Below are positions 23,934 through 63,742 of a DNA stretch of 64,000 nucleotides, piece after piece; position 1 is the stretch's first letter, and every line of letters starts with the position of its first letter. The notes under the pieces are model-generated. The model saw only the letters and a list, made by a program, of their open reading frames with translations, did not search any database and was not told the DNA's origin. The translations under genes and the position numbers were made by a program. The DNA is taken from the NCBI GenBank assembly GCA_965208725.1, contig CBDBPI010000001.1:732687-796686 (forward strand), in the 5' to 3' direction. The DNA comes from Dehalococcoidia bacterium. Lineage in GTDB: Bacteria; Chloroflexota; Dehalococcoidia; Lucifugimonadales; GCA-2712585.

Positions 23934-24020
23934 AAAAGCGCAACTTGCTGAGCGGCGAAAAGACGGGACAGACAATGCTAGAGAATTAGTCAGTAATACT
24001 GGAGAACGGACCGCGGCTTA

Positions 24021-40016: not shown

Positions 40017-40045
40017 CCGTAGGGGCGGGTTTCAAACCCGCCCGT
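40017..40045. repeat. solitary REP-like hairpin (family A) between convergent genes
   Basis: CCGTAGGGGCGGGTTTCAAACCCGCCCGT. GC stem GGGCGGG/CCCGCCC. It fills most of the 59-bp gap between the stops at 39991 and 40051. Confidence 0.8.
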
Positions 40046-47044: not shown

Positions 47045-47054
47045 GTCTGTTCTC

Positions 47055-48994: not shown

Positions 48995-49033
48995 CCTTCC
49001 CCCTTGACGGGGGAAGGTTTGGATGGGGGTGAT
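48995..49033. repeat. REP-like hairpin, family E
   Basis: CCTTCCCCCttgacGGGGGAAGGtttggatgggggtga; 9-bp GC stem. Confidence 0.8.
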
Positions 49034-49157
49034 TCAGGTAGTATGGATGACGCATTTGGTAGTTATGCAATGTCTTCCCCGAAGGGTGGGGTTCCGATGG
49101 GTGTGATGCTTCTCTATCTCCATTCTGTTCAAATCGACCCGCAAAGCCCTCCGGCTG

Positions 49158-49937
49158 CTAGTGTCCCGTGTACTCGGGGTCCCGCTTCTCCACGAAGGCC
49201 CTCGCCGACTCCTCGAAGTCCGCCGTGTTGTGAAGCCTTAACGCCGCCTGGTAGTAGTCCGCCTCGGCGGCGGCACGCACCCACGGCCAGCGCGTCACCC
49301 TCACCCCGGCGCGGACCGCCAAGGGCGGCGCTTCAAGAATCTGCTCCGCCAGTTCCACGGCCCCCCGCAGATGCTCGCCCTTCGGTGTGACCCGATTTAT
49401 CAGCCCATGACCCATCAGCGTCTCGGCGGTCTGGGACTGCCCCGTCAGCAGCATCTCCGTGGTCATCTTGGAGGGCATGAAGTTCTGCACCTTGGCCCAC
49501 GCCGGCCCTCCGGGGAAGCCCCGCAGCGTCTCAGTGAGACCGAACTCAGCCCCCTTCTCGGCGACGATTAGGTCGCACTCGGCGGCGATGACCAGCCCGT
49601 AACCCAGACAGTATCCGTGGACGGCGGCGATGACAGGCTTCCAGTTGATGCATCGACCCAGAAACCCCTCCGGGTTCATCCCCATACCCCAGTCGGCGTC
49701 CCGTTGGCGTGAGTTGGGGTTGTGAAACCGCTCCTTTACGTCGGCGCCGGAGCAGAAGGCCCGACCCGCCCCATGCATCACCGCCACCCAGGCCTCGTCG
49801 TCAACGTCAAAGCTGTGCAGGGCCTCCGCCAGGTCTGTCTCCAGGTCCTTGTTGACGGCGTTGAGCACCCGCGGCCGATTTAGGGTCACGTAGCCGATGC
49901 GGCCTTCTCTTCGATAAGTGACGGCTTTCGAGTTCAT
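49158..49937 (-). CDS. enoyl-CoA hydratase/isomerase (crotonase) family protein
   Basis: ITLNRPRVLNAV, AFCSGADV, AAVHGYCLGYG. Confidence 0.88.
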   Translation of the reverse strand: MNSKAVTYRREGRIGYVTLNRPRVLNAVNKDLETDLAEALHSFDVDDEAWVAVMHGAGRAFCSGADVKERFHNPNSRQRDADWGMGMNPEGFLGRCINWKPVIAAVHGYCLGYGLVIAAECDLIVAEKGAEFGLTETLRGFPGGPAWAKVQNFMPSKMTTEMLLTGQSQTAETLMGHGLINRVTPKGEHLRGAVELAEQILEAPPLAVRAGVRVTRWPWVRAAAEADYYQAALRLHNTADFEESARAFVEKRDPEYTGH

Positions 49938-50010
49938 AACTGGACAGCCTCCAAAGCCTATTATGCCCCAGCCGCACCTCTCTTGCCAGTCGACCCCTCT
50001 TAATCCACCC

Positions 50011-50214
50011 GCTCATCCTGAGCTTATCGAAGGACGGCGTGGATGGGATGATCGCACTCCCTCCACTCCTCCCCCGCCTCCGCTCCACTTTCCCCACCCC
50101 CGCGAAAGCGGGGGCCCACTCGTCAACAGAAATCATCAAACCCCACCACGCTGCCTTTTCTTGTTTCTGCGAAGGCGGGAACTCCCCCACTCATCCTGAG
50201 CCTGCCGAAGGACG
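50011..50214. repeat. mosaic REP-like array 2 (families C, B, B', C)
   Basis: gctcatcctgagcttatcgaaggacgg (50011-50037); ccccacccccgcGAAAgcgggggcccactc (50092-50122); ttctgcGAAGgcgggaa (50164-50182); ctcatcctgagcctgccgaaggacg (50189-50214). Confidence 0.8.
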
Positions 50215-50279
50215 TAGGGACGGTTCGCGAACCGCCCGACCCAACTCCCCGCCAATTCTCAAAAGTGCCAAAATGCCCC

Positions 50280-50338
50280 TTGCAATCCAACAAACGCCCG
50301 TTCTATAGTATACGTTATAAGAAATTCTATTCGAATAG
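50280..50338 (+). promoter_or_regulatory. promoter plus downstream 12-bp perfect palindrome upstream of phage-like module 2
   Basis: TTGCAA (50280-50285), 18-nt spacer ending GTTC, TATAGT (50304-50309). Palindrome CTATTCGAATAG (50327-50338). Confidence 0.4.
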
Positions 50339-50359
50339 CAAGGAGGACATCCGAACAAC

Positions 50360-50704
50360 ATGCTCCCCAGTCGAACCAGCAAGAAATACATCGGCGCAAA
50401 CATCGATGGCCAGGAATACAGGGACGAAGGATGCGAAATCTCCCCGTCCTGTCTGCGATGTCCTCTGCCCCGCTGCAAGTACGACGATCCCCAATACGCC
50501 CAGGCCCAGCGTCGCCGTCAGAGGGACAACCTGATCGTCAGCGCTCACGTACGCGAAGGTCTCTCCGTGGCCGAGGTGGCCCGTCGGTTCGGACTCACCC
50601 ACAAGACCATACTTCGAATTTTAAGGAGGAACGGATATGGAAGAAATAAATCTGCCTCAGCTCGTCGCAAGAAGGGACGCCCGTCGGCTGCAAGGCTACG
50701 CTGA
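50360..50704 (+). CDS. Cys4 plus helix-turn-helix small protein (overlaps the portal start)
   Basis: CEISPSCLRCPLPRC, then HTH LSVAEVARRFGLTHKTILRILRR. The 3' end overlaps the portal gene by 68 nt. Confidence 0.5.
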   Translation: MLPSRTSKKYIGANIDGQEYRDEGCEISPSCLRCPLPRCKYDDPQYAQAQRRRQRDNLIVSAHVREGLSVAEVARRFGLTHKTILRILRRNGYGRNKSASARRKKGRPSAARLR

Positions 50705-51965
50705 AAACATCAGCTTCTTCGCCGGACGTCAGTGGCAGGGCCGCCAGCGTCGCGGCGAACGTCGGCTCACCTTCAACTACGTGCGCGCCCTGCTCGAAAA
50801 GGTCACGTCCTACATGGCCTCCGGCAGCATCCTCGCAATGGAGCCAATAGAGCCTTCAGAAGAAGGCATGGCCCGCGCTCGCAGCGCTGAAATCGCCATG
50901 CGCCGCGTCTACCAGGACAACCGGCTGGAAGAGCTGGACCTCGCCACCGAGCTCGACGCCGCCGTCCTCGGCGACGGCTGCTTCAAGGTCATCTGGGACC
51001 CGGAAGAACATCGCGTCCGCGTAACCGCCCCCGACGTTCAGGGCATCTTCGCCTGGTGGATCGGCGACGATCCATCCAGGGTCTGGCGCGTCGCCAGCCG
51101 ATACCGCATCTCCGCCGAAGACGCCGACCACCTTTACAACGTCAAGACCGGCGACCAGGACGGCATGGCTACCGTCGTCGAAGGCTGGACAAAGTCCCTG
51201 TTCCAGCTGTGGGTCGGCGATAACCTCGTCGACGAACGTCCCAACCCCTACGGCTTCATCCCCTTCGTCATCTTCCCCAACCTGCGGGATCCAAAACGCT
51301 TCTGGGGCGTCTCCGACATCCCCATCCTCATGGAACCAGCCCGCGAGCTCAACCGCGCCCTCTCCCAGCTTTCCACCATCCTGGAACTCTCCGGCAACCC
51401 CATCGCCGTGCTGGAGGGTGTGGAGGAAGCCCGCGACATCGCCGTGGAGCCGGGGGCAGTCTGGGAGCTTCCCGACCAGGCCCGCGCCTACCTGCTGGAT
51501 CTGCTCCAGGGCGGCGGCGCCAAGCTCCACGCCGACTACATCAAGCTGGTCTACGACGCCCTCCACGACCTGTCCGAAGCGCCTCGTATCAGCTTCGGAC
51601 ACAACCCACAGCGTCTCTCCGGCGTCGCCCTGGAGATGGAGATGCACCCCCTGCTGCAGCGCGTTGAGCGCAAGCGGCTTATCCGATCCTGGGTCTACCG
51701 TCGACGGGCGGAGATGGCCCTCCGGATGCTGGAACGCTTTGCCGGACAGGACTTCGGCGATCTCTGGATACGCGTTGACTGGGGGCCTCTGCTGCCCCAG
51801 GACCGCACCCGCCTTGTCCAGCAGGAACGCAGCCTCGTGGAGGCAGGCATCCACAGTCGCCGACGCGCCATGGAGCGCCTCGGCGTCACCGACCCCGAAT
51901 CCGAGCAGCAGACCATCCGACGCGAGTCGGAGAAGTCCGCCTTAGAAAACATCAACAACAATTAG
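50637..51965 (+). CDS. phage portal-like protein
   Basis: 442 aa. Its position before an acidic scaffold-like ORF and its size suggest a portal. Strong SD AAGGAGG 8 nt upstream. Assignment is by context and general resemblance only. Confidence 0.55.
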   Translation: MEEINLPQLVARRDARRLQGYAENISFFAGRQWQGRQRRGERRLTFNYVRALLEKVTSYMASGSILAMEPIEPSEEGMARARSAEIAMRRVYQDNRLEELDLATELDAAVLGDGCFKVIWDPEEHRVRVTAPDVQGIFAWWIGDDPSRVWRVASRYRISAEDADHLYNVKTGDQDGMATVVEGWTKSLFQLWVGDNLVDERPNPYGFIPFVIFPNLRDPKRFWGVSDIPILMEPARELNRALSQLSTILELSGNPIAVLEGVEEARDIAVEPGAVWELPDQARAYLLDLLQGGGAKLHADYIKLVYDALHDLSEAPRISFGHNPQRLSGVALEMEMHPLLQRVERKRLIRSWVYRRRAEMALRMLERFAGQDFGDLWIRVDWGPLLPQDRTRLVQQERSLVEAGIHSRRRAMERLGVTDPESEQQTIRRESEKSALENINNN

Positions 51966-51975
51966 AGGAGGCATC

Positions 51976-52542
51976 ATGGAAAATCAACCAAACGAGACCA
52001 ATTCCGAGGCCATAGAAATGTTAGACGACTCCACCGACACGCCTGAAATCAAGCACGAAAGCTCCGAAAATTCGGATTCCTCTGCACCACACAGCGAAAC
52101 GAGTCCCCCGGCAACAAGTCAGGAAGAAACGTCGGAAGAGAGCGAGAAGAATGAGGACGCAAACGTGGAGGAACCCTCCCCGCTCGAAGGCCGAATGGCA
52201 GAGCTGGAGCAACGGCTCGAACAGTCGGAGACCCAACGTCGGGAAGGTGAAGAAAAACTCTCCGCCACGCAGAAATCCCTGGCGGAAGCGGTTTCCCGCT
52301 ACCGGGCCATGCTGCTGAAGTCCATGCCGGAGGCGCCTGAGTCCATGGTCGTCGGAGAAACCGTGGACGAAGTGGACAGCTCTTTCGCCGACGCCAAGGC
52401 CCTGGTCCAACAGGTTCGACGAGAAATGGAGGAAAGACTGGCCAGGGAACGTCTCCCCGCCGGTTCCCCCACCCGCGGCCACGCCAACTTCGCAACCCTC
52501 ACCCCCATGGAAAAGATCCGCTCCGCCCTCTCCAACCCCTAA
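51976..52542 (+). CDS. phage scaffold-like acidic coiled-coil protein
   Basis: 188 aa. Very acidic N-terminus (SEESEKNEDANVEE) and a coiled-coil centre. Immediately follows the portal-like gene. Confidence 0.5.
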   Translation: MENQPNETNSEAIEMLDDSTDTPEIKHESSENSDSSAPHSETSPPATSQEETSEESEKNEDANVEEPSPLEGRMAELEQRLEQSETQRREGEEKLSATQKSLAEAVSRYRAMLLKSMPEAPESMVVGETVDEVDSSFADAKALVQQVRREMEERLARERLPAGSPTRGHANFATLTPMEKIRSALSNP

Positions 52543-52567
52543 AACGCCCACAACCACATAACCATCC

Positions 52568-52795
52568 GGTAGAGGCGGGTTTGAAACCCGCCTCTACCAT
52601 TCCCCACCCCCGCGAACGCGGGGGCCCACTCTTCGCTGACACCAAGCCCCATCCCTCCACGCTCAACCCCCAACCCAAGCCCAACTCTGCAAAACTTGCC
52701 GTCACGCAGTGACCCCCTCTCTCGCCCTGGGAGAGGGTCGGGGTGAGGGGGTACTCGCTCATCCTGAGCCTGCCGAAGGACGAAGGGTCGAGCAC
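52568..52795. repeat. mosaic REP-like array 3 (families A, B, G, D, C)
   Basis: GGTAGAGGCGGGTTTgAAACCCGCCTCTACC (15-bp stem, 52568-52598); ccccacccccgcgaacgcgggggcccactc (52602-52632); family G about 52681-52712; ccctctctcgccctgggagagggtcggggtgaggg (52714-52750); gctcatcctgagcctgccgaaggacg (52757-52782). Confidence 0.85.
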
Positions 52796-52838
52796 CCCCA
52801 ACTGCCATCCGTCTATGTCATCAAGAATTTAGTTGTCT

Positions 52839-53426
52839 TCAGAAAGTGATAAAGTGGCCCCCAAAAACTCTTGCTAGTACGTTGTCAGGGTCATGCTCAG
52901 CAATCCCCTGTAACTCTCTAGGTATGTGTAGAGCTAGTGAACTTTCTCTCAAGAGCTCCATCAAGCGTACTGACTCTTCGTAGGCAATTTCATCCCACTG
53001 CTCAGCATCAACTTTTGACTTCCTTAGTCGATCAAAGCCTTCATCTTTCAAGTCGAGTGTCAGAAGCTCAATATAGACTGAATACGTCCATATTGTCTCT
53101 AGGTATGCCTTTGATGTACCCAACGCTGCGGAATGCAGTTGTGCATGTTCACTTTGAGGTCTAACGTCTACTAATCGATTGTGTGCATCTTGAGATTCAA
53201 GTAAGTGTGCTCGGTAAGCTGCCACACGTTCGGTCGACCGTTCTTGCCACTCGGCTTCAGAATTTTGGAATATTATTCCTGCCTGTTCATGAATCTTACT
53301 GGTCGGCAAGATATACAGGAGAACATCTTGCAGACATCGTGTAAACTCACCGTCTGCAACTCGCGCCTTGAAAAGACGGGAGATGGAATAGAGAATCATT
53401 CGCAGCCAAGACATTAACACCCCCAA
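52839..53426 (-). CDS. hypothetical protein (low GC)
   Basis: 195-aa ORF; no motif recognised. Compositionally distinct from its neighbours. Confidence 0.5.
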   Translation of the reverse strand: MGVLMSWLRMILYSISRLFKARVADGEFTRCLQDVLLYILPTSKIHEQAGIIFQNSEAEWQERSTERVAAYRAHLLESQDAHNRLVDVRPQSEHAQLHSAALGTSKAYLETIWTYSVYIELLTLDLKDEGFDRLRKSKVDAEQWDEIAYEESVRLMELLRESSLALHIPRELQGIAEHDPDNVLARVFGGHFITF

Positions 53427-53496
53427 CGACTAGATGAACATAACTTTGCCCAGAATATACTACAACCTAGAACGCAATATGGGTTAGGCGCCAGCC

Positions 53497-54519
53497 ATGA
53501 ACCTCAAATTCGCTGCCACCTCCCGGCCCGGCAACCACGACGAAGTGGTCCAATGGGTCCAGGCCGCCGAGGCCCTCGGCTACCACCGCATCGGCATCGC
53601 CGACTCCCCCGCCCTCTACCGCGATATCTGGGTCTCCCTCACCCACGTGGCCCTCAACACCCGCCGCCTCCCCTTCGGCTCCTGGGTCACCAACCCCGTG
53701 ACCCGCCATCCCGTGGTGACCGCCAGCGCCGCCTCCGCCCTGGCTGAAATCGCCCCCAACCGCGTCTGCATCGGCATCGGCTCCGGCAACAGCGGCGTCT
53801 ACAACGCTGGACGTCGCGCCGCAACCCTCGCTTCCCTCCGCGAATACGTAACCACCCTTCGCGCCCTCCTGACCACCGGCGAGGCCGAATACCAGGGAGG
53901 AACGGCCCGCCTCCGCTGGTACGACGTGGACAGAAAAATCCCCATCTACATGGCCGCCCACGCCCGCGGCTCCCTCCGACTGGCGGGCGAGCTCGCCGAC
54001 GGCGTCATCATCGGCACGGGCACAACCCCGGAGGTGGTGGAAGCGTCTCTCAACGCCCTCGCCGAGGGCGCCCGCACCGCCGGTCGAGACCCCAACGACA
54101 TCGACGTCTGGTGGTCCGTCCCCTTCAATCTCCGCGACAGCGACGACGAAGGGTTAGACCCCCAGGGTGGCCCCGCGCGGGAGGCCAACTACCTCAACCG
54201 CTTCACCCTCAAGGGCAAGTTCGTCCCGAAGCAGTACTGGGAGGGCATCCGCGCCCTCGCCCAGGCATACGACCTCAGCACCCACGGACGTCCCACCCCC
54301 GAGCAGCTCCGTACCTACGACGCGCTGGCCGAAGAGTACGGCGTTCGTGACTACCTGCTGGAGCGATTCGGCGGCATCAGCGGCACAGCCGAAGAGTGCA
54401 TCGAAAAGCTCCGCCGCAACGCCGCCATCGGCGTCCGCCAGTACAGCATCAACGTCCCCGACTCCAACCGCCCCCAACGCCTTCGCCGCATGATGGAAGA
54501 AGTCATCAGCCACGCCTAA
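53497..54519 (+). CDS. LLM-class (luciferase-like) flavin/F420-dependent oxidoreductase
   Basis: GYHRIGIADSPALY..., TIM-barrel LLM pattern; 340 aa. Confidence 0.8.
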   Translation: MNLKFAATSRPGNHDEVVQWVQAAEALGYHRIGIADSPALYRDIWVSLTHVALNTRRLPFGSWVTNPVTRHPVVTASAASALAEIAPNRVCIGIGSGNSGVYNAGRRAATLASLREYVTTLRALLTTGEAEYQGGTARLRWYDVDRKIPIYMAAHARGSLRLAGELADGVIIGTGTTPEVVEASLNALAEGARTAGRDPNDIDVWWSVPFNLRDSDDEGLDPQGGPAREANYLNRFTLKGKFVPKQYWEGIRALAQAYDLSTHGRPTPEQLRTYDALAEEYGVRDYLLERFGGISGTAEECIEKLRRNAAIGVRQYSINVPDSNRPQRLRRMMEEVISHA

Positions 54520-54591
54520 CCCGCCAATAATGTAGTCCACTACTTCCCTTGATTTGAGAATAGATAATCTCCTCAGAGTGAGGGCCGTAAA

Positions 54592-54966
54592 ATGCCATTA
54601 GGAGAAAGCAACTTGTACGCCTCCGTCTACATATACCGGGTCAAAAGGAAAAACGTCGAGGAATTCTTGGCTATCGAGCGAAAGGCCGCCAAGGTCTATA
54701 TGGAGCACGGGTCTATCAACTATGACGTCTATAGGGGATTAAATCTGGCAGCCATGTATGGCTGCGCAGGGTTTGCGGAGTCATTGGATGTCGCCGACGA
54801 TGAGGAGGTACTGATTGGCTTGAACGGCTTCCACGACGAGGCCCATCACGACGAAACTATGCCCAAGGTCAACTCAGACCCAAGAATCCAGGACCTCTTC
54901 GCTCAGGTGATCAAGGTGATAAGCCTGGAACGCACCATCCACGGCAAGTTCGAGTTCGTCAGCTAG
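54592..54966 (+). CDS. DUF1428-like protein
   Basis: YIYRVKRKNVEEFLAIERKAAKVYMEHG...DPRI resembles the DUF1428 pattern. Confidence 0.5.
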   Translation: MPLGESNLYASVYIYRVKRKNVEEFLAIERKAAKVYMEHGSINYDVYRGLNLAAMYGCAGFAESLDVADDEEVLIGLNGFHDEAHHDETMPKVNSDPRIQDLFAQVIKVISLERTIHGKFEFVS

Positions 54967-54976
54967 AGTCTATTTC

Positions 54977-56134
54977 CTAACCCCGCCCATTCTTCCGCAC
55001 AAACCCAGCCAGCCGCTCCAACGCCTTGGCGATGTTATCCGCCGAGTTGGCGTACGACAGACGCACAAACCCCTCCCCGTACTCGCCGAACGCGCTCCCC
55101 GATAGCAGCGCCACTCCCGCCTCGTTCAGCACTCGCTCCTGAAAATCGCCGCTCTCGAATCCCGTCCCCTCGATACTGGGGAACACGTAGAAGGCCCCCT
55201 CCGGCACCGCACACTCGATGCCCGGGATGCTGTTCAGCCCCGCCACAATCAGGTCCCGACGCTTCCGAAACTCGTCCACCATGTTCAGCACCGGCTCCTG
55301 CGGCCCCTCCAGCGCACGGATGGCCGCCCGCTGCGTGAAGCTCGCCGCGCACGACACGCTGTTGGCCGCCAGCTTCACCACGTGCTCCGTCAGCCAGTGG
55401 GGGAACACCCCGTAGCCCAGCCGCCAGCCCGTCATCGCGTAGGACTTGGAGAATCCGTCCAGTATCACCGTCCGCTCCACCATCCCCGGCAGCGACGTGA
55501 TGCTGTGGTGCGCTCCCTTGTAGATGATGTCCTTGTAGATCTCGTCGGAGAGAATCACCACGTCTTCCCGAGGCCCAAGCAGCCCTGCCAGCCGCTCCAC
55601 GTCCTCCCTGCCCATGACGGACCCCGTCGGGTTCTGGGGCGAATTCAGAATCACCAGCTTGGTGCGGTCGGACAGCTTGCTCTCCAGGTCGTCCAGGTCC
55701 ATCCTGTTCCCCTCGTCGGGCAGCAACCGAACGGGAACCAGCTTCGCGCCGCAGAAGTTGATCATCGACTCGTAGATGGGGAAGCTGGGGTTCGGATAGA
55801 GGACCTCGTCTCCCGGTTGGCAAAGCGCCATGATGGTGAAGAACATGATGGGCTTGCCCCCCGGCGTTACCACCACCTGGCTCGGCTCTATCTCCAGTCC
55901 CCGCGTCGCGTTCACGTTGTTCGCGATGGCCTCCTGAAGCTCCGGCAGGCCGGCGGAAGGTCCGTAGTGGGTGTAGCCCTGCCGCAGCGCCTGGATGCCC
56001 GCGTCCACTATATGGGAGGGCGTGTCGAAGTCCGGCTCCCCTATCTCAAGGTGTACCACGTCGTGACCCTTGGCCTCCAATGCCTTGGCCTTGGCCAGTA
56101 CCTCAAAGGCCGATTCCGTCCCCAGGTTGTTCAT
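54977..56134 (-). CDS. pyridoxal phosphate-dependent aminotransferase (class I, aspartate aminotransferase-like)
   Basis: MNNLGTESAFEVLAKAKALEAKG..., NPQNPTG, SKSYAMTGWRLGY (PLP lysine). The longer track ORF runs into a REP array. Confidence 0.88.
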   Translation of the reverse strand: MNNLGTESAFEVLAKAKALEAKGHDVVHLEIGEPDFDTPSHIVDAGIQALRQGYTHYGPSAGLPELQEAIANNVNATRGLEIEPSQVVVTPGGKPIMFFTIMALCQPGDEVLYPNPSFPIYESMINFCGAKLVPVRLLPDEGNRMDLDDLESKLSDRTKLVILNSPQNPTGSVMGREDVERLAGLLGPREDVVILSDEIYKDIIYKGAHHSITSLPGMVERTVILDGFSKSYAMTGWRLGYGVFPHWLTEHVVKLAANSVSCAASFTQRAAIRALEGPQEPVLNMVDEFRKRRDLIVAGLNSIPGIECAVPEGAFYVFPSIEGTGFESGDFQERVLNEAGVALLSGSAFGEYGEGFVRLSYANSADNIAKALERLAGFVRKNGRG

Positions 56135-56242
56135 CCTGTCTGCTGCTTGCAAATGACCCCTCCCCTTTGGCGTCAACCCCCTTTTACCAGAGCGCAACGA
56201 AAAGCGCAACGAAAGCCCCCAACCCCCACCAACCTCGCCTTC

Positions 56243-56480
56243 CGTAGCGGCGGGTTTAAAACCCGCCCTCTCCCGTCTTCCCCCTCTCCCGTCCTGGGAG
56301 AGGGTTGGGGTGAGGGTCACTCCCCCTCCCATCCCCCACATGTCACACTAAACGCAGCGAAGAACCTTGCTGCCATTTACCAATCCCCACCCCTCGTTTT
56401 CCCGCGAAGGCGGGAATCCATATTCCCTCTTCCCTCTTGAGCCTTCCCCATCGACGGGGGAAGGTATGGATGGGGGTGAC
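56243..56480. repeat. mosaic REP-like array 4 (families A, D, F, B', E) in a divergent intergenic region
   Basis: cgtagcggcgggtttaaaacccgccc; cccctctcccgtcctgggagagggttggggtgagggt; catgtcacactaaacgcagcgaagaacc; ttcccgcGAAGgcgggaa; ccttccccatcgacgggggaaggtatggatgggggtga. Confidence 0.85.
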
Positions 56481-56573
56481 TCCCTCCCTCTCACCGAGAC
56501 AAGAACCCCTCACCCACCCAAAATGTTAATATGTACCCGAATCGTATCCACTAACCAGCCACCGGAGGTTTCC

Positions 56574-57695
56574 ATGAACAGCAGCGACGTTGTAATCGTA
56601 GGTGGAGGCGCCGTCGGCTGCGCTACCGCCTATTTCCTGTCCCAAGCGGGCGCAAATGTCACGGTCATCGAAAAGAACCGCATCGCCTTCGGCGCCTCCG
56701 GTTTCGCAATGGGGTTGTTGAGCCCCCTCTACGGCATGGGCATCCCCGGCCCGCTGGAAGGACTGTCCCTCAACGGCTTCCTCATGCACCGCGATCTCGC
56801 CGCCGAACTCCCCGACGCCACCGGCGTCGACTACCACGCCCACCCCCACGACTCCATCTACCTTTCCCTCTCCGACGAGGATGAAGAAGGGTTGAAGGGC
56901 ATTGCGTCCTACTCCGGCAACGTCGATGGGGTCTCCTACCAGTGGCTGGAGAGACAACAACTCCGGAGCATCGAGCCGCGATTGACCCCCGCCGCCGAGC
57001 GCGGAATGCTCGTCCAGGGCACCTGGGTGCTGGAGGCCGACAAGTACACGGAAGCCCTCGCCGAAGGCGCAAAACTTCACGGCGCCACGTTCCTTGACCG
57101 CGCCGTCACCGGCCTCGCCCGCCGCTCCACCGGCGCGGTTGTCCAGACCGATCAGGGCGACATAGAGGCCGACGCCGTTATCCTCGCCATGGGCCCCTGG
57201 ACCGGCGACGCCGAGAAGTGGCTAGGCGTACCCATACCCGTCGGCCCCCTAAAAGGCCAGATTGTCCGAATGAACATCGGCGGGCCGCCCGTTACCTGCT
57301 CCGTTCACTACGCCAGCAACTACGCCGGGCAAAAAGCCGACGGCCTCACCTGGATCGGCACCACCGAGGAGCGCGTTGGCTTCGACAACGAACCTACTAT
57401 GGAAGCACGTGAGCGCATCATCCGCGAAGTCGGAGAATTTTTCCCGCCCGCGCTGACGGGAAAGGTTGTCCATCAAACGGCCTGCCTGCGTCCCGTGGCC
57501 CCCGACGGCCTCCCCGTCATCGGCCCCGTCCCCGGCTGGGAGGGTGTCTACCTCTCCACCGGCGCCGGACGCAAGGGCATCATCCTCAGCCCGTCCATGG
57601 GTAAGTTGACCGCGGAAATGGCCTTGGGCAGCGGCGACGAAATGGCAATCGCCGCCTTCTCCCCCGTCCGCTTCAGCTCCATAGCCCCGTGCTGA
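56574..57695 (+). CDS. FAD-dependent oxidoreductase (DAO/glycine oxidase-like)
   Basis: DVVIVGGGAVGCATAYFL dinucleotide-binding motif. Start at MNSSDVV with a GGAGG SD. Confidence 0.85.
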   Translation: MNSSDVVIVGGGAVGCATAYFLSQAGANVTVIEKNRIAFGASGFAMGLLSPLYGMGIPGPLEGLSLNGFLMHRDLAAELPDATGVDYHAHPHDSIYLSLSDEDEEGLKGIASYSGNVDGVSYQWLERQQLRSIEPRLTPAAERGMLVQGTWVLEADKYTEALAEGAKLHGATFLDRAVTGLARRSTGAVVQTDQGDIEADAVILAMGPWTGDAEKWLGVPIPVGPLKGQIVRMNIGGPPVTCSVHYASNYAGQKADGLTWIGTTEERVGFDNEPTMEARERIIREVGEFFPPALTGKVVHQTACLRPVAPDGLPVIGPVPGWEGVYLSTGAGRKGIILSPSMGKLTAEMALGSGDEMAIAAFSPVRFSSIAPC

Positions 57696-58596
57696 AGTAA
57701 CGCTCGCCGATGTCGTTGAAAATCGTCACCACCTTCCCCTCTCCCACCCTCTCTGCGACGATAAACGCCCCCAGCACGTAGGCCCCCGAGCTCTGCCCGG
57801 CGAACAACCCCTGCGACGCCAGCTCCTGTGACACGGCCCGCGCCTCGTCGATGTCTATGGACAGCATCTCGTCCACCACGCTCTCGTCCAGCGTCTGCGG
57901 CGTAATGTGCCCCGGCCCCAGCGGCTTCAGCCCCTCCACGCCGGGCCATTCCGGCGGATTGACGCCGATGACCTGGATATCCGGGTTATGCTCTTTCAGC
58001 CGACGCCCAACCCCGCTGATGGTCCCGCCCGTCCCCACGCCCGCCACGAAGTGGGTGATGTCCGGCGCCTGACGCAGAATCTCCTCGCCGGTTGTGTCGT
58101 AGTGGGCCTGCGGATTGAACTCGTTGGAGTACTGGTCGCACCAGAAATACCGCTCCGGCTCCCCCTCGTACCGGCGCTTCACCTCCCGCAGCGTCTCGTC
58201 GTAGCCCAGCATCGGGTCGGTAAAGATAATCTCCGCGCCGTGGGCCAGCAGCCGCTTCTTCCGCTCCTGGCTCGCGTTCTCCGGCATCACCAGCGCCACC
58301 CGGTAGCCCAGCACCGCGCCAATCATGGCGTACGCGATGCCCGCATTCCCCGATGTGGCATCCAGAATGATCTTATCCTTCGTCAACTCCCCCGAAAGAA
58401 TCGCCTCTCCCAACATCCGCAACACGGGACGGTCCTTGATGGAGCCGCCGGGATTCAGATGCTCATACTTGGCGAAGACGGGCGCGCCGCCCCGGCTGTT
58501 CGGGATTCGCGCCAGCGGCGTATTCCCGATGGCCTTCAGCGGCGGATACCCGTCCAGAAACTCCAGAAACTCCTCAGATAGGGACACCCAGCACAA
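57673..58596 (-). CDS. cysteine synthase (CysK/CysM family, PLP-dependent)
   Basis: IGNTPL..., NPGGSIKDRP (PLP lysine), TSGNAGIA. Confidence 0.88.
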   Translation of the reverse strand: MCWVSLSEEFLEFLDGYPPLKAIGNTPLARIPNSRGGAPVFAKYEHLNPGGSIKDRPVLRMLGEAILSGELTKDKIILDATSGNAGIAYAMIGAVLGYRVALVMPENASQERKKRLLAHGAEIIFTDPMLGYDETLREVKRRYEGEPERYFWCDQYSNEFNPQAHYDTTGEEILRQAPDITHFVAGVGTGGTISGVGRRLKEHNPDIQVIGVNPPEWPGVEGLKPLGPGHITPQTLDESVVDEMLSIDIDEARAVSQELASQGLFAGQSSGAYVLGAFIVAERVGEGKVVTIFNDIGERYFSTGLWS

Positions 58597-58743
58597 CCTC
58601 GTCCAGTGATTTGGGGAAGAAAACCGCTTTCCTTCTAGGACTCATGCGCCCCCTTCCACCAATCGAGTATATCTATTGCAGGTTTGGGCGTAAAGCTTGA
58701 GGAGTTTAGGAGGAGTTAATTCCCAAAAGGACCATTTTGCCTA

Positions 58744-58773
58744 TTTACAGCTATAGTATCCATGTTCTAGTAT
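58744..58773 (+). promoter_or_regulatory. promoter upstream of the capsid gene (phage-like module 3)
   Basis: TTTACA (58744-58749), 18-nt spacer ending GTTC, TAGTAT (58768-58773). SD AAGGAGG; ATG at 58806. Confidence 0.4.
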
Positions 58774-58805
58774 CTCCTCATCAAACATTTCAAGGAGGTG
58801 CTTCA

Positions 58806-59696
58806 ATGGCATTAACTCTCACGGAATCCGCAAAACTCTCCCAGGATATGCTCCTCACCGGAGTCATCGAGACCATCGTCAAGGACAGCCCCGTCCTCCA
58901 GACCATCCCCTTCATCGAGGTGGTCGGCAACGGCCTCACCTACAACCAGGAAAAGGCCCTTCCCTCCGTCTCCTTCTACGAACCCGGCGACACCTGGACC
59001 GAGTCCACTCCCACCTTCACCCAGGTCACCGCCAACCTCAAGATCCTCGGCGGCGACGCCGACGTCGACAACTTCGTCAAGGCCACCCGCTCCAATCTGC
59101 AGGACCTGGAGGCCACCATCGTCGCCCTCAAGTCCAAGGCCACCCAGCAGCAGTTCGACACTACCTTCATCGACGGCGACACCGCTACCGACTCCAAGGC
59201 CTTCGACGGCATCGACAAGCTAACCGCTGACACCCAGACCGTCGCTATGGGGGCCAACGGCGGCGCCCTCACCCTCGACAAGCTGGACGAGACCATCGAC
59301 AAGGTCCGCGGCGGCAAGCCCGACATGCTCATCATGAGCCGTCGCTCCCGCCGCAAGCTCTCCGCCCTGGGCCGCGCCGTCGGCAGCGGCATCGTTGTCA
59401 CCGACAGAAACGGGTTAGGCATGATGACCGACTACTACGACGGCATCCCCGTCGGCGTCAGCGACTTTGTCAGCGACGAAAAGACCGTCGGCAACAAGAG
59501 CGACTGTTCAACCATCTACGCCCTCCAGTGGGGCGAAGGCGCCGTCGCCGGCCTCACTTCCCCTGGCGGCCTTCAGGTGGAACGTGTCGGCAGCCTCGAG
59601 ACCAAGGACGCCACCCGCGTCCGCGTCAAGTGGTACGTCGCCATCGCCGTCTTCAATGCCCTCAAGCTGTCCAGGCTAACCGGCGTCCGCCCCTAA
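58806..59696 (+). CDS. HK97-fold major capsid-like protein
   Basis: MALTLTESAKLSQDMLL...GGDADVDNF...LTLDKLDETIDKVRGGKPDMLIMS. The size (297 aa) and these motifs resemble phage major capsid families. Followed by an adaptor-like gene. Confidence 0.65.
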   Translation: MALTLTESAKLSQDMLLTGVIETIVKDSPVLQTIPFIEVVGNGLTYNQEKALPSVSFYEPGDTWTESTPTFTQVTANLKILGGDADVDNFVKATRSNLQDLEATIVALKSKATQQQFDTTFIDGDTATDSKAFDGIDKLTADTQTVAMGANGGALTLDKLDETIDKVRGGKPDMLIMSRRSRRKLSALGRAVGSGIVVTDRNGLGMMTDYYDGIPVGVSDFVSDEKTVGNKSDCSTIYALQWGEGAVAGLTSPGGLQVERVGSLETKDATRVRVKWYVAIAVFNALKLSRLTGVRP

Positions 59697-59912
59697 CCCC
59701 CTCCCCCTTCTTCCCCACTCTTCCCCACCCCCGCGAACGCGGGGGCCCACTCGCCAACGGGAATCGCGAAACCCCGCCACGCTCCCCCTCCTTCGTCATT
59801 CCTGCGAAAGCAGGAACCCACGGCGGGGCGGGGCCGAGGGGCAACCCTCTACCGTTCATCCTGAGCCTGTCGAAGGACCCCCCGTAGGGGCGGGTTTCAA
59901 ACCCGCCCTCCC
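59697..59912. repeat. mosaic REP-like array 5 (families H, B, B', C, A)
   Basis: aaccccctcccccttcttcccc; ccccacccccgcgaacgcgggggcccactc; attcctgcGAAAgcaggaa; ttcatcctgagcctgtcgaaggac; cgtaggggcgggtttcaaacccgccc. Confidence 0.85.
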
Positions 59913-59948
59913 ATCCCAAACCACCACCAAACATAAGGAGACCCCAAA

Positions 59949-60572
59949 ATGACCCTTACCGAAATGCGAAACCGCCTGCGGATAGACCTTCACGACGAAG
60001 ACTCCGCAAACTACCTCTGGACCGACGACCAACTCAACCGCCACCTCGGCCGCGCCGTGCGCGAACTCAGCGCCGTCCAGCCCCAGCCTGACGTGGCAAC
60101 CGTAAAGACCGGCTCCGACGGACGCTCCGTGACCCTGACCTCCCTCTCTGACCTCGTCCGCATCGAAGCCGTTGAATTCCCCCTCAACGAAATCCCGCCC
60201 TCTTACATAGACTACAGCCTCCGCGGTGCCGCCCTGACTCTGCTAACGTACCAACCGCCCAAGCCCAACGAGTCCGTGAGGGTCCACTACGGACGCCTTC
60301 ACACTCTGGACGACGACACCTCCACCATCCCACCCCACCTTGAAGAACTCGTCATCACCGGCGCCGCGGGTTACGCCGCCATGGACTGGTCCGTCCACGC
60401 CATCAACAGCATCAACCTTGGCGGCCCAAACACCTGGCGACACTTCCTGGTCTGGGGACAGGAGAAGCTGGCCCACTTCCGACAGGGCTTGGCCGCCCTG
60501 AGCCGCCGGGCCGGACTGCGAGTGCGCCGTCTCTACCGCCCTGTACACCAGCCCACTGCTGGAGGACTATAG
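59949..60572 (+). CDS. phage head-tail adaptor/head completion-like protein
   Basis: MTLTEMRNRLRIDLHDEDSANYLWTDDQLNRHL... is a typical adaptor N-terminus. Position after the capsid gene. Its stop overlaps the next gene's GTG. Confidence 0.45.
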   Translation: MTLTEMRNRLRIDLHDEDSANYLWTDDQLNRHLGRAVRELSAVQPQPDVATVKTGSDGRSVTLTSLSDLVRIEAVEFPLNEIPPSYIDYSLRGAALTLLTYQPPKPNESVRVHYGRLHTLDDDTSTIPPHLEELVITGAAGYAAMDWSVHAINSINLGGPNTWRHFLVWGQEKLAHFRQGLAALSRRAGLRVRRLYRPVHQPTAGGL

Positions 60573-62569
60573 TGCGCTCCCTTTCTCAAACGCTATTGGA
60601 TGCACAGCGCTACTCTCGCCGTCAGCCCCACCTGGGCGTGACCGTGGATCGGCGGCTTCCCCACGTGTTCCATCCCGTCTTCTCCCGGCTTCAGAATCTG
60701 GACGAGACCCCCTCCCGCCACGACCTCCACCTCACCTCAACCAGGACTCTCATCCGGGCCCGCGTCTCCCGCTCCAACTCCAGGCTCTACGTCCAGCGCG
60801 TCGCCGGAGCCGGATCAAACAGCAGCTTCACCCAGTGGACGTACCTGAACCGCGCCTATCCCGACGCCGGAGTCGCCCTATGCGGCAGCGGCTCCTACGT
60901 CCTCATGGTCTATGTCCACTACAGCAACCGACGCGAGATCCGATACCGCGAAAGTACCGACGACGGCGTCACCTGGAGCAGTGACAGTCGCCTCGTCTAT
61001 CCCTCCGTCGGCGGCGTATCCCACCTCACCGCGGCCATGAGCCCTGCCGGAAAAGTGGGACTCTTCTTCACCGGAACCAACAACAACCTCTACGCCATGA
61101 GGCGGCTCGACGGAAGCTGGACCGCCCCCGCATCGTGGCCTCAGTCCTCCTACGTCAGGCAGATTTCCGGCATCGCCTCCGCATACGGCGACGACTGGAA
61201 CGTGGTCGTCTGCGGCACAACCTCCACCGGCTCCTCCCGCGTGTGGACCATGATTTACGGCGACGGTACGGAGCAGGCCCGCGGCCAGTGGTCCAGCATC
61301 ACCAGCCTCACCCGCGCCGATGGCGGCTCCCGGGTTTCCTTCTCCCATCCCTATCTGGCAAATGCCGACACCAACCGTCTCTTCTTCAAAGAGTCCTACG
61401 ACGGCTCCGATTCCTACGGTCGCGCCTTCTGGACCTTCACCCCTCAGAGCGCCTCCTTCCTGACTGCCCGGTGGCGCGAGCCCATCCCCTTCGACGCCGA
61501 CCCCTACGCCGGTGTGGCCGTTGCTGGAAACTCCACCACCCTCTGGCTTGGAACCTCAACCCAGGTCTGGCGAGCCGCCGCCGGTCCTCAGCTGGACCTG
61601 ACCGACGACCTTCTGGAGGCGCATCTGACGGAAGGCGCTGCTGGTGGTCAAGCCACCCTGCTCCTTCGCAACGACAATGGCCGCTACAACGGTGCCGGCG
61701 TCGAAAGCGCATCGCCCCTGGTGCCGGGCGCGCGGGTCCGCTTCAACCCAGGCTATGTCACCCCTAAAGGTGTCGAGCGCTCCCCCGGCCCCGCCTACTG
61801 GATTGCAGGACTGGAGCGCCGTTCAGGCCACGGAAAGGCCCGCCTCGCCCTCTATCTGGAGGACGGCTGGTCCCTGCTGGAACGATGGCGCGCACGCTAT
61901 CAGCACAACTGGATCAAGGGCTTCACCTCCGTCGAGGACATCATGGAGTTCATCCTTGCCAGGGCCGGTTTGAGCCTGGAAGTCCTCAGCGCCAGCCAGG
62001 TTTTCAGGAGGCAGCGCCCTGCCTTCACCATCCACCCGAACGCCACCGCAGCCGACGCCGTCAAGCGGCTCATGTCCACCGTGCCGGACGTTCTCTACTT
62101 TCGGCAGGGCAGCCCCGCCGTGAAGCTGCTCGATCCCTCCGATGCCGCCGATTACTCCTACGGCGCGGACCATCCCATCATCAACGGCCGATATCTATAC
62201 CGGCCGTCCCGCTACAACCGCATCCAGACCTTCGGCCTAAACAGGCTCCAGGAGTCCCTCGACTGGGACTCCGTTGCGGCAATGTCGGACAGGCTCCTGC
62301 AGGTCTACGACATTAACCAGGAGACCTCCGACTCCGCAAAGAAGAGGAGCGACAGCCTCCTCGCCAAGGAACGACTCGCCACCCGGGGAGGACTTCTGGA
62401 AGCCCCTGTCAACTGTGGCTTGGAACTCTACGACGTAATCGGCATCACGGACCCCGCCGCCGGTCTCAACGGCGCCAGGCGGCGAGTCACCGGCATAGAC
62501 CTCAAGTACCGACGAGGCCCGAACGCCCCACCCCTCTACCGCCAGACCCTGACCCTCTCGGGAGTATGA
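60572..62569 (+). CDS. phage tail hub-like protein: BNR/sialidase-like N-terminal half fused to a gpD/gp27-like C-terminal half
   Basis: Asp-box STDDGVTWSS and propeller-like repeats in aa 1-330. The C-terminal half (ATLLLRNDNGRYN...VRFNPGY...YWIAGLERR...ARLALYLEDGWSLL) resembles late-control-D/hub proteins. Confidence 0.45.
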   Translation: MRSLSQTLLDAQRYSRRQPHLGVTVDRRLPHVFHPVFSRLQNLDETPSRHDLHLTSTRTLIRARVSRSNSRLYVQRVAGAGSNSSFTQWTYLNRAYPDAGVALCGSGSYVLMVYVHYSNRREIRYRESTDDGVTWSSDSRLVYPSVGGVSHLTAAMSPAGKVGLFFTGTNNNLYAMRRLDGSWTAPASWPQSSYVRQISGIASAYGDDWNVVVCGTTSTGSSRVWTMIYGDGTEQARGQWSSITSLTRADGGSRVSFSHPYLANADTNRLFFKESYDGSDSYGRAFWTFTPQSASFLTARWREPIPFDADPYAGVAVAGNSTTLWLGTSTQVWRAAAGPQLDLTDDLLEAHLTEGAAGGQATLLLRNDNGRYNGAGVESASPLVPGARVRFNPGYVTPKGVERSPGPAYWIAGLERRSGHGKARLALYLEDGWSLLERWRARYQHNWIKGFTSVEDIMEFILARAGLSLEVLSASQVFRRQRPAFTIHPNATAADAVKRLMSTVPDVLYFRQGSPAVKLLDPSDAADYSYGADHPIINGRYLYRPSRYNRIQTFGLNRLQESLDWDSVAAMSDRLLQVYDINQETSDSAKKRSDSLLAKERLATRGGLLEAPVNCGLELYDVIGITDPAAGLNGARRRVTGIDLKYRRGPNAPPLYRQTLTLSGV

Positions 62570-62584
62570 CATGACAATCAAAAA

Positions 62585-62758
62585 CCATCCCCCACCACCG
62601 AACCCCCTCCCCTTCTTCCCCCTCTCCCGTCCTGGGAGAGGGTTAGGCCTGTCCTGAGCTTGTCGAAGGGGTGAGGGTCCCTCTTACCTCTTCCCCCTTG
62701 ACGGAGGAAGATTGAGATGGGGGTGATTCCCAATCAACCAAAACCCAACACAGGTGAA
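62585..62758. repeat. mosaic REP-like array 6 (families H, D, C, E) bracketed by a 16-bp direct duplication
   Basis: Flanked by ACATGACAATCAAAAA at 62569-62584 and 62759-62774. Confidence 0.85.
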
Positions 62759-62760
62759 AC

Positions 62761-62973
62761 ATGACAATCAAAAAAGGCATCATCAAGGCTTTCAGCTCCT
62801 CAACCTACAAGGCCACCGTCCAGATGGAAGGCAGCCTCTCCGTCTGGGTAAGCTCCGTCCCCGTCGCCCGCAACATATCCTCCTCCCAGGTCCAAACCGG
62901 CAGACGCTGCGCCATCCTCTTCTTCAGCGAAGAGAACAAAAACGACGCCGTAGTCTTCGCCGTCTACACCTAA
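62761..62973 (+). CDS. small OB-fold-like protein (gpV/gp5 spike N-domain-like)
   Basis: KGIIKAFSSSTYKATVQMEGS...VPVARNI...GRRCAILFFSEENKNDAVVFAVY follows the G.V..v....a.V.......l..vpv......G..v.vlf......avv.avy pattern. Confidence 0.4.
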   Translation: MTIKKGIIKAFSSSTYKATVQMEGSLSVWVSSVPVARNISSSQVQTGRRCAILFFSEENKNDAVVFAVYT

Positions 62974-63625
62974 CCCCCTCTCCCGTCCCTCACTCCCCAC
63001 CCCCGCGAACGCGAGGGCCCACTCTTCACCCCCCAAACCCACATGTCATTCTGAACGCAGTGAAGCGAATTGAAGAATCTCGTTGCCGTAGCAACCCAAC
63101 TCCCCCAACCGCTCATCCTGAGCCTGTCGAAGGGTCGAGCGGTGAGCGCCCCCTGTAGGGGCAGGTTTCAAACCTGCCCGCCCCCTCTTTCCCCTCTCCC
63201 GTCCTGGAAGAGGGTTGGGGTGAGGGTATCGCCCCCAAAGTGACACTCCCTCTTGCCACCAAACACCAAACTTGCTGCAACGCAGTTGCCCCACCCTCGC
63301 GAAAGCGGGGGTCCACTCTTCCCCCACGCCAAAGACTCCCGGTAGGGGCACGTTTCAAACCTGCCCTTCTTCCCCTTCACCCACGTCCAGCCCGTAGGGG
63401 CGGCTCGCCCTCCTGTCTTACCTCTTCCCCCTTGACGGGGGAAGATTGAGATGGGGGTGATCCCTTCTCCCTTCCCACCCCCGCGAAGGCGGGGGCCCAC
63501 TCTTCACTCACGTCCAACTCTTCCCCATAACTGCCTATCTTCCCTTTTTGTCTCTCTTGCCACCAAACCCCTCACCAACCACCAACTTTGCGAAACTTGC
63601 CGCAACGCAGTTGCCCCCTAGCCAC
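62974..63625. repeat. mosaic REP-like array 7 (about 13 units of families D, B, F, C, A, G, E)
   Basis: Examples: ccccacccccgcgaacgcgagggcccactc (about 62995); gtcattctgaacgcagtgaagcgaattgaagaatctc (about 63045); gctcatcctgagcctgtcgaagggtcgagcgg (about 63110); gtaggggcaggtttcaaacctgccc (about 63156); cccctctcccgtcctggaagagggttggggtgagggt (about 63191); cttcccccttgacgggggaagattgagatgggggtga (about 63423). Confidence 0.85.
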
Positions 63626-63656: not shown

Positions 63657-63742
63657 GCCGAAGTGGCGGAATGGTAGACGCGCCGGTCTCAAAAACCGGT
63701 GGGGGTTTCCCCGTGTCGGTTCGAATCCGACCTTCGGCACCA
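63657..63742 (+). tRNA. tRNA-Leu (anticodon CAA), class II with long variable arm, CCA encoded
   Basis: Acceptor GCCGAAG/CTTCGGC. Anticodon stem CCGGT/ACCGG with loop CTCAAAA. Variable arm GGGGGTTTCCCCG. T-arm GTCGG-TTCGAAT-CCGAC. Discriminator A plus CCA. TACAAT -10-like box at 63643-63648. Confidence 0.9.

Follow-up and report, generated by a model that had tools for sequence, protein, structure and literature searches.

Strand-locked arrays of REP-like hairpin repeats in a Dehalococcoidia genome

A phage-like locus and its repeat arrays

The DNA considered here is a stretch of 64,000 nucleotides (the window; C1:732,687-796,686) from the genome of a Dehalococcoidia bacterium, G000, which comprises 2.88 Mb in two contigs (C1 and C2) with 60% G+C. 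Between positions 45358 and 62973 of the window lie phage-like genes for a terminase, a helix-turn-helix protein, an SPP1-type portal, a scaffold-like protein, an SU10-type capsid, an adaptor, and proteins of 665 and 70 amino acids (aa), and housekeeping blocks split the packaging, head and adaptor genes into three modules. An earlier note on this DNA had described seven arrays of short hairpin repeats in the region, assembled from families named A to H; arrays and families are indeed present where it had placed them (Table 1), and 40-odd units are mapped across 48,995-63,617 when family models and patterns are combined. These arrays are one instance of a pattern seen throughout the genome, in which hairpin units accumulate head to tail in intergenic DNA, turn over fast, nest at a fixed site and keep a single orientation within each chromosomal domain.

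The split arrangement is conserved in gene order in eight further species of the genus (loci L012-L019), with capsid proteins 83-93% identical, so the phage-like genes are old and vertically inherited. The locus looks like a domesticated particle locus of the gene transfer agent (GTA) kind and not like a prophage. The window itself spans a border in GC skew: its first ~44 kb show weak, mixed skew and carry copies of an insertion sequence (IS), and the part from 44 to 64 kb has a skew of -0.13 to -0.24. The earlier note had found only one unit in the other 44 kb of the window, and the mapping agrees, with a lone family A copy in the weakly skewed part.

Folded as single-stranded DNA (ssDNA), the units form hairpins with energies between -7.8 and -11.5 kcal/mol (z-scores between -2.5 and -5), except for G, whose fold is weak. 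Compensatory subfamily pairs occur in the stems of A, B, E and G, and support selection on the stems. Families A to H are real, yet the list was incomplete: A2 and A3 (GTAG hairpins with CGCG loops), G2 (AACTTGCCGTCATGCAATGAC), K, M and P emerged from residual k-mers, as did a family of the form CGTCATTCCGGC...GCCGGAATCCAG. Some of the listed families are parts of composites, namely B-x-B' (73 nt) and H, which is a leader of D or B. No Rfam family was matched by any unit, and a search of the published literature for the unit sequences and for the spurious peptides they encode returned nothing relevant.

Two of the designs belong, by their sequence, to the repetitive extragenic palindromic (REP) class. 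A 5' GTAG tag at the hairpin foot is found in A, A2 and A3 only and is missing from B, C, D, E and G; family A can be classed by this tag as a GTAG-tagged REP. The CGTC-1 design (PMC3733652) recurs in B', where a CGTC tag is combined with a stem of 8 bp starting with AT, a loop of 4 nt and a tail reading CCA; on these features B' is a CGTC-tagged REP, i.e., the NTS/SRM motif of the Ssn GIY-YIG nuclease. Both B' and its CGTCATTCCGGCGAAAGCCGGAATCCAG variant match the NTS consensus CGTCATTCCCGCGMAVGCGGGAATCYRG nearly base for base; the published SRM expression is passed by 30 units, 21 of them CGTCATTCCGGCGAAAGCCGGAATCCAG copies, and a looser pattern by 65.

In family C, the hairpin loop is conserved and 11 nt long (GAGCYTGYCGA), an invariant T-A pair closes it, and the stems covary (CATCCT/AGGATG, CATGCT/AGCATG, CATGGT/ACCATG, CGTACT/AGTGCG). 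The loop has 510 matches in the genome against 17 for the reversed control, and 411 of them are closed by at least four pairs. Exact matches to a 23-mer of C occur in many phyla (loci L060-L139), including Alpha- and Betaproteobacteria, Acidobacteriota, Elusimicrobia, Dependentiae and Chloroflexota. Inverted pairs are frequent among the alphaproteobacterial copies; where a Chloroflexota locus has two copies, they share one strand. We know of no cognate protein for this hairpin. Family F is probably of the same conserved-loop type. The C hairpin is also the origin of the common spurious peptides SFDKLRM and ILSLSKD, and the other spurious peptide types listed in the earlier note (GFKPAPT, PLSRPGRG, VIPAKAG) were likewise recovered in open reading frames (ORFs) that cross the arrays. 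Families D and E are built alike: a short linker joins a 9-bp hairpin, whose loop has 5 nt, to a G-rich tail that can alternatively pair with the 5' arm; they are lineage-specific modules of the form "hairpin plus G-rich tail".

Table 1. Coordinates of the repeat arrays and of other features (window positions unless a contig is named)
Feature	Position	Strand	Content or context
Array 1	48995-49033	+	Single E unit (8-9-bp hairpin, 5-nt loop, plus G-rich tail); spacer between GTPase and enoyl-CoA hydratase genes
Array 2	50010-50238	+ (all units)	C, B, linker x, B' (CGTC-type), C, A3 (GTAG REP, CGCG loop)
Array 3	52569-52795	+	A (copy palindromic throughout), B, G, D, C
Array 4	56243-56480	+	A, D, F, B', E; divergent spacer between aminotransferase and FAD oxidoreductase genes
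Array 5	59697-59912	+	H, B, x, B', C, A; capsid-adaptor spacer
ACATGACAATCAAAAA, copy 1	62569-62584	+	16-nt direct duplication on both sides of array 6
Array 6	62585-62758	+	H, D split by a nested 23-nt C mini-unit (62647-62669), E
ACATGACAATCAAAAA, copy 2	62759-62774	+	Contains the real start codon of the 70-aa gene
Array 7	62974-63625	+	B, F, C, A, D, G, B, A, partial A2, E, B, G; extends to tRNA-Leu(CAA)
tRNA-Leu(CAA)	63657-63742		
Family C units	50010-50035, 52756-52781, 59853-59878, 63110-63141		
Lone family A unit	40019-40043	+	Weakly skewed first 48 kb
IS4/IS5-family element, two copies	445-1317, 24020-24892		873 bp each, inverted
600-aa ORF	42313-44115	-	No Pfam match
96-aa and 108-aa gene pair	46754-47381	-	Between terminase and DUF192 genes
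Candidate ssn gene 1	C2:826170-826454		
Candidate ssn gene 2	C2:470607-470876		
Degraded GIY-YIG copy	C1:646.8 kb		
dnaA	C2:139.9 kb		
CRISPR array	C1:1043338-1055819		End of C1
CRISPR array	C2:21-7065		Start of C2
tRNA-SeC genes	C1:605301, C2:256359, C2:1766222		Called by ARAGORN

Genome-wide distribution and strand polarity

Genome-wide copies were counted by iterated nhmmer searches seeded with the window copies, a fuzzy-regex census having undercounted strongly, and genes were taken from a self-trained gene finder. The models recover about 100 copies of A, 208 of B, 40 of B', 170 of C, 125 of D, 290 of E and 108 of G. These amount to 1,043 non-overlapping modelled units, 994 of which (95%) are intergenic; other families add about 200, giving at least 12 families and some 1,250 units in all. 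Reversed-sequence controls of the patterns gave no match, and the units are far above chance expectation. As the earlier note had proposed, many families co-occur in variable order: the order of units within arrays is near random, except that identical units are rarely adjacent (21 cases, where 106 ± 9 would be expected).

Units are clumped, with a median of 2, a mean of 5.3 and a maximum of 44 per 14.6-kb interval. The strong local concentration noted earlier around the phage-like modules holds in that the studied region, with 30 modelled units, is in the top 1.9% of such intervals, and its hot spot runs on past the window end. It is less exceptional among strongly skewed intervals, where the mean is 10.5 units and the region falls in the top 5%, with a density about twofold higher (8.8 against 4.2 units per intergenic kb), and comparable hot spots exist elsewhere. 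Skew was measured as the coding-only GC skew within ±10 kb of a unit. Across the genome, unit density rises with |skew| (Spearman 0.71), from 0.7 units per 20 kb at |skew| < 0.03 to 12-16 at |skew| > 0.15. About one third of the genome has flat skew, is almost unit-free (0.6 units per interval) and bears a deviant strand-symmetrised tetranucleotide signature, which fits younger, acquired DNA. The genome is a patchwork of about eight skew domains of alternating sign plus flat domains, without gene-strand bias, and the congener G009 has a similar patchwork. The skew of coding DNA is extreme, with a median |skew| of 0.19 at the units.

The main result concerns the polarity of the arrays. The earlier note had stated that orientation differs between arrays; this is wrong, as all oriented units of the window lie on the + strand and, in the whole genome, each of the 131 intergenic arrays with at least three oriented units has every unit on one strand. 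The strand of a unit corresponds to the sign of the local skew in 934 of 941 cases, and the seven exceptions lie at domain borders. IS-like "unit-gene-unit" structures were considered for these seven units and ruled out, the positions being merely domain borders. Families that played no part in defining the rule comply with it as well: GTAG tag 48/48, G2 40/40, K 25/25, M 23/23, P 36/36 and F3 11/11. Families D and E are G-rich and nevertheless always lie on the C-rich strand, so that the polarity is no artefact of base composition. Genes are split about 50:50 between the strands in each domain, and the top-strand skew is equal for either gene strand (median |skew| 0.19), which indicates that neither skew nor polarity arises from transcription. 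The rule is also borne out in relatives. In twenty evenly spaced 20-kb samples each, 153 units follow the skew against 36 in G009, strictly so at |skew| > 0.15, and 50 against 7 in G030, a member of another family with weaker skew; in G003, the E and CGTC families switch strand at the same places.

Another account would see the units as RNA-level elements, i.e., 3'-end hairpins, mRNA stabilisers, processing sites or factor-dependent terminators kept by selection on transcripts. Unit density is 4.0 per kb in convergent spacers, 2.0 in tandem and 1.4 in divergent ones, units are densest at gene 3' ends, and arrays begin directly after stop codons. Tandem spacers also show a weaker, secondary bias towards the sense orientation relative to flanking genes (329 sense against 185 antisense, 1.8:1). 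The compensatory changes that maintain the stems would be expected, and such roles have been published for REPs (PMC3733652). This account is nevertheless unlikely. Orientation tracks the chromosome strand, and units never flip even though the genes of each domain do; from one species to the next, orthologous spacers have their entire content exchanged, which is unexpected of a conserved regulatory element; Rfam has no match. Terminator-like T-tract sites number 7 where 12.4 are expected, with none in arrays. The more specific reading of the units as intrinsic terminators was rejected, as the arrays have no T-tails and the genome has fewer such sites than its shuffles.

Near-perfect polarity relative to strand asymmetry in all families could also bring to mind polar, KOPS- or Chi-like signals of chromosome architecture that the replisome, a translocase or a recombination enzyme would read, with selection keeping them co-oriented with replication. 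The G-rich tails of D and E (GGGGTGAGGG, GATGGGGGTGA) are loosely similar to G-rich polar octamers. We consider this highly improbable, in that a dozen unrelated sequences would serve one signal, a third of the genome has no units, copy number ranges from 0 to 650 among congeners, and orthologous positions are not conserved. Moreover, it is the C-rich strand that carries the G-rich tails, which under the usual convention is the reverse of known KOPS and Chi.

Turnover, nesting and candidate enzymes

A comparison of orthologous spacers, as suggested in the earlier note, found them empty in some species and filled with different sets of units in others. The capsid-adaptor spacer is only 61-62 nt long and free of these units in G010, G008, G004 and G006, and the whole phage-like locus of G010 and G004 holds no modelled unit. 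The same spacer contains H-B-x-B'-C-A in G000, D in G005, B'-C-A3 in G009, an intact E plus A2 in G003, and, in G007, the same E with a 23-nt C mini-unit inside, plus A3. At the junction between the stop codon of the 665-aa gene and the start codon of the 70-aa gene, a few bases only are found in G010, G004 and G006 (TGAAATG in the first two). In G000 and G009 alike, the start region of the 70-aa gene is duplicated over 16-18 nt, and the units between the two copies are wholly different in the two species. In G000, array 6 has shifted the 70-aa gene by 190 nt, and a duplicated ATGACAATCAAAAA at the old position opens a decoy ORF into the array. Units are thereby seen to be gained and lost one at a time on the time scale of species divergence in the genus. 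Larger shifts affect whole families: by pattern counts, G000, G001 and G009 carry 224, 0 and 233 copies of E and 65, 540 and 655 CGTC units, respectively.

Units also nest in one another. Inserts of 23-24 nt occupy one fixed site, between the hairpin-linker and the G-rich tail, in 21 of 233 E units and 16 of 97 D units; they always start with (A)GCCTG and contain one of three hairpins. Direct repeats of at least 10 nt around multi-unit arrays number 3 against 2.3 in shuffled flank pairs, in a flank interval so narrow that the duplication at array 6 was missed. Flanking repeats being no commoner than in shuffles, this duplication appears to be a one-off, common to G000 and G009.

These comparisons bear on whether the arrays belong to the GTA-like locus itself, as regulatory or packaging repeats or as integration scars beside tRNA-Leu. 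Their position would suit such a role, the seven arrays lying between phage-like and housekeeping blocks and reaching the tRNA-Leu gene, in a region within the top 2% of the genome by unit density. Array 4, however, lies between pure housekeeping genes, about 1,000 further copies are found elsewhere, and several other hot spots are equally dense even though there is just one capsid gene. Eight congeners share the synteny of the locus, and most of them have 0-3 units there. Over nine species, unit counts at the orthologous locus go with the local GC skew: 16 units at -0.17 in G000 and 10 at -0.18 in G009, 2-3 units at -0.15 to -0.19 in G005, G007 and G003, 0-1 at about -0.05 in G010, G004 and G008, and 2 at +0.08 in G006. 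The hot spots, the synteny and the low counts in congeners refute a locus-specific origin for practical purposes, and the tie to the phage-like modules drawn in the earlier note does not hold, given the single-copy capsid gene, the other hot spots and the 0-2 units found where the skew of the locus is weak. The cluster is dense at the phage-like genes because their domain is strongly skewed, permits repeats and offers many short spacers.

The enzymes that could move such units were sought in the genome. No REP-associated tyrosine transposase (RAYT) or IS200-type transposase is present in the window, in agreement with the earlier note, and the search of the whole genome was also negative: Y1_Tnp (PF01797) had no match where controls were positive, TnpB was not found, and Rep_trans had no match. 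Searches for Y2 and Rep_1 returned nothing in the genome or in their controls and are uninformative. In 40 relatives, only two weak Y1 matches were obtained, none of them in the repeat-richest genomes, G009 and G001. An HUH enzyme, suggested by the CTTGA(C/T) loops of E and K, was rejected as no Y1 or Rep_trans was found, the Y2 and Rep_1 searches being uninformative on this point too. A reverse-transcriptase route found no support, as the single reverse-transcriptase gene is located in a repeat-free, flat-skew island.

The units might still be relics of RAYT or IS200/IS605 transposition, in which each family had its own Y1 (HUH) enzyme, inserted into the lagging-strand template and later lost the gene. 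Family A bears the GTAG tag typical of RAYT substrates (PMC3733652), and IS200/IS605 elements are known for their strict orientation relative to strand asymmetry (PMC3333891, PMC6006769). Should the C-rich strand be the leading one, as the rRNA and S10 genes hint, the tag-bearing strands would be on the lagging-strand template, as for IS608. Besides the negative searches, the many sequence-identical units and the differing spacers of congeners point to recent activity without an enzyme, a dozen families would need a dozen lost transposases, and REPs served by RAYTs normally form inverted pairs, none of which is seen here. We regard such an origin as improbable.

A different type of enzyme is encoded in the genome. 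Two 95-aa single-domain GIY-YIG genes, 63% identical to each other, are candidate ssn genes by their domain and surroundings. Their Pfam GIY-YIG scores are 58.7 and 51.5 bits, NCBIfam has no specific model for them, and the PDB returned only UvrC (E 0.007). The first is bracketed by inverted CGTC units, which is the NTS-gene-NTS layout, and the second by B' units; a third, degraded copy is also present. The unit downstream of one candidate gene is one of only two Ssn-motif hairpins that break polarity. Both relatives with more than 200 CGTC units carry a close homologue. SsnA is a 94-aa GIY-YIG nuclease that binds and cuts the NTS/SRM hairpin as ssDNA only, and on one strand only (PMC11893778).

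A strand-specific step and its relation to known systems

It appears likely, with a probability of roughly 0.6, that the arrays belong to a population of REP-class ssDNA hairpins that extends over the whole genome and whose fate depends on a strand-specific step, phage biology not being the cause. The step that establishes or removes units would act on one specific strand during its single-stranded phase, for which the replication fork is the likeliest place. In one version, insertion itself would be strand-specific, as in IS200/IS605 (PMC6006769). In a second version, ssDNA nucleases, for instance the two Ssn-like proteins of this genome, would eliminate units in the wrong orientation in a strand-specific manner, an attractive idea because the published specificity of Ssn is for one strand. 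A wider proposal can be made, although we hold it, as a whole, to be doubtful: a guild of unrelated hairpin repeats would live under one undescribed replication-coupled rule that permits a single orientation, with Ssn paralogues and analogues for the C, D and E types acting on the strand exposed at the fork. Polarity, extreme GC skew and repeat-free young islands would then all be read-outs of long single-strand exposure, and the (A)GCCTG mini-units would be the smallest site-specific mobile elements yet seen, moving by a non-HUH mechanism.

Several observations weigh against a step at the fork or against the resident nucleases as its agents. The link between skew and replication is itself an assumption. 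The G-rich strand is, by the usual rule, the leading strand, and this is supported here in that the G-rich strand is also T-rich and that unit decay consists mostly of G-to-A changes on the C-rich strand, the classical pattern. The 16S rRNA gene, the S10 operon, 27 of 45 tRNAs and 52% of genes, however, lie on the C-rich strand, in conflict with that rule. Neither dnaA nor the only, small cluster of DnaA boxes is at a skew switch, and the two contigs undergo about eight changes of skew sign without gene-strand bias, so that dnaA, DnaA boxes, rRNA, S10 operon, tRNAs and gene strand give conflicting signals as to the leading strand. Such a patchwork implies either many large inversions that carried skew and units along or an unusual chromosome organisation. 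Small segments of inverted skew retain units, and a frozen historical record fits this as well as ongoing selection does. As for the nucleases, only about 65 units (~5%) are of the Ssn-target type, we know of no enzyme for B, C, D, E and G, and the presence of Ssn does not follow family E. CGTC units occur without detectable Ssn in G003, G004 and G023, and G003 shows domain polarity too, so a resident Ssn is not required. Finally, the 1.8-fold sense excess in tandem spacers leaves room for an RNA-level role.

Some of these elements have been published before, namely the REP-like class, the GTAG and CGTC/NTS families and the association with Ssn. The assignment to REPs and bacterial interspersed mosaic elements (BIMEs) made in the earlier note points to the right neighbourhood, since A and B' are GTAG- and CGTC-type REPs by sequence, but the arrays are not BIME-like in that orientation never alternates. 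Like the described GTAG and CGTC REPs, the units are 20-40-nt, high-copy intergenic palindromes with several families per genome, prefer gene 3' ends and generate spurious ORFs (PMC3733652). CGTC REPs have been reported without a dedicated transposase, and clustered GTAG REPs have been recorded in the Chloroflexi bacterium T. roseum (PMC3733652). Published REPs, in contrast, mostly form head-to-head or tail-to-tail dimers, the head-to-tail arrangement being "negligible" (PMC3733652), whereas all arrays here are head-to-tail and strand-locked, mix up to 12 or more units of different families, and consist mostly of units with neither tag (B, C, D, E, G).

The NTS/SRM-Ssn system shares with the present genome a directional motif, single-domain GIY-YIG genes of about 95 aa and, in one case, the inverted NTS-gene-NTS layout (PMC11893778). 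It differs in that the motif accounts for about 65 of some 1,250 units and that relatives without an Ssn match still carry polar units; the likeness to Neisseria SsnA is one of motif, domain and layout. A text search of the Ssn paper (PMC11893778) found no mention of chromosome-wide polarity or of arrays mixed with other families. The BIMEs of E. coli, associated with a RAYT (TnpA-REP), are also mosaic intergenic arrays of hairpins and linker motifs for which an ssDNA mechanism has been proposed (PMC3333891). There, REP and inverted REP alternate and Y, Z1 and Z2 are variants of one hairpin; here, alternation never occurs, many unrelated families take part, and no RAYT was found.

Another comparison is offered by the repeats SDR1-8 of Nostocales, which, reportedly (Elhai et al. 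2008, Genome Res 18:1484, via PMC3116915), are ~21-27 nt long, encode no enzyme, show compensatory changes in their hairpins, nest and are patchy among relatives. Nesting in other copies and compensatory stem changes occur here as well. The sequences are different by description, as is the phylum, and nesting occurs here at one site, 5' of the D/E G-rich tail. To our knowledge, strand polarity has not been reported for SDRs. Elements of the IS200/IS605 family bear hairpins, as the present units do, and their orientation is tied to the replication strand (Ton-Hoang et al. 2010; PMC6006769, PMC3971601). Here, orientation is tied to GC skew, the replication-strand signals being in conflict; polarity is ~100% over many families, no TnpA or TnpB was found, and the units are 20-40 nt long without ends or cargo. 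In P. fluorescens SBW25, repeat-rich and repeat-free domains alternate in a similar way for the R families, with "repeat deserts", as here, covering about a third to 40% of the genome (PMC2718517). The deserts of the present genome, however, are regions of flat GC skew whose oligonucleotide signature is deviant, and its repeats are polar. A limited literature search returned no report of strict head-to-tail, strand-locked polarity common to a dozen families, of polarity scaling with |skew|, of (A)GCCTG fixed-site nesting, of a cross-phylum conserved-loop hairpin, or of REP polarity relative to replication.

REPs have been known for 40 years, and how most of them spread, especially those without a RAYT, is still an open question. 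With more than 1,200 units, no HUH transposase found, strict polarity, fast turnover and a candidate pair of ssDNA nucleases, this genome amounts to a natural experiment. If polarity is imposed at the fork, unit maps would become a read-out of replication history and genomic island age in uncultured bacteria, and roles of Ssn outside Neisseria, including the making or policing of repeats, would become directly testable. In practical terms, the arrays create many false ORFs, inflate intergenic DNA to the point that the coding fraction is ~80-84% (by crude gene calls), disrupt translational coupling, an example being the spacer upstream of the 70-aa gene, and are likely to break assemblies.

Other features of the window and genome deserve mention. 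The repeat other than the lone unit in the first 48 kb is the IS4/IS5-family element, whose two inverted copies contain DUF4096 and DDE_Tnp_1 ORFs and flank ~22.7 kb of weakly skewed, unit-free DNA; the pair may represent a composite transposon or a recent rearrangement. The 600-aa ORF has a low-complexity run of ~200 aa, rich in proline, threonine and glutamate (TPEPTP...), near its N-terminus, and the 96-aa/108-aa pair, judged by eye, looks like a Phd/YefM-RelE/ParE antitoxin-toxin pair. Large CRISPR arrays lie at the ends of both contigs, where an identical spacer (GCAGGTCTCACAGCGACACCGGGCGTCGCTAGG...) is repeated 69 and 48 times; these outward-facing runs, in opposite orientation at the contig ends, are either a tandem amplification or an assembly break. 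Lastly, three genes for selenocysteine tRNA (tRNA-SeC) were called, one on C1 and two on C2.

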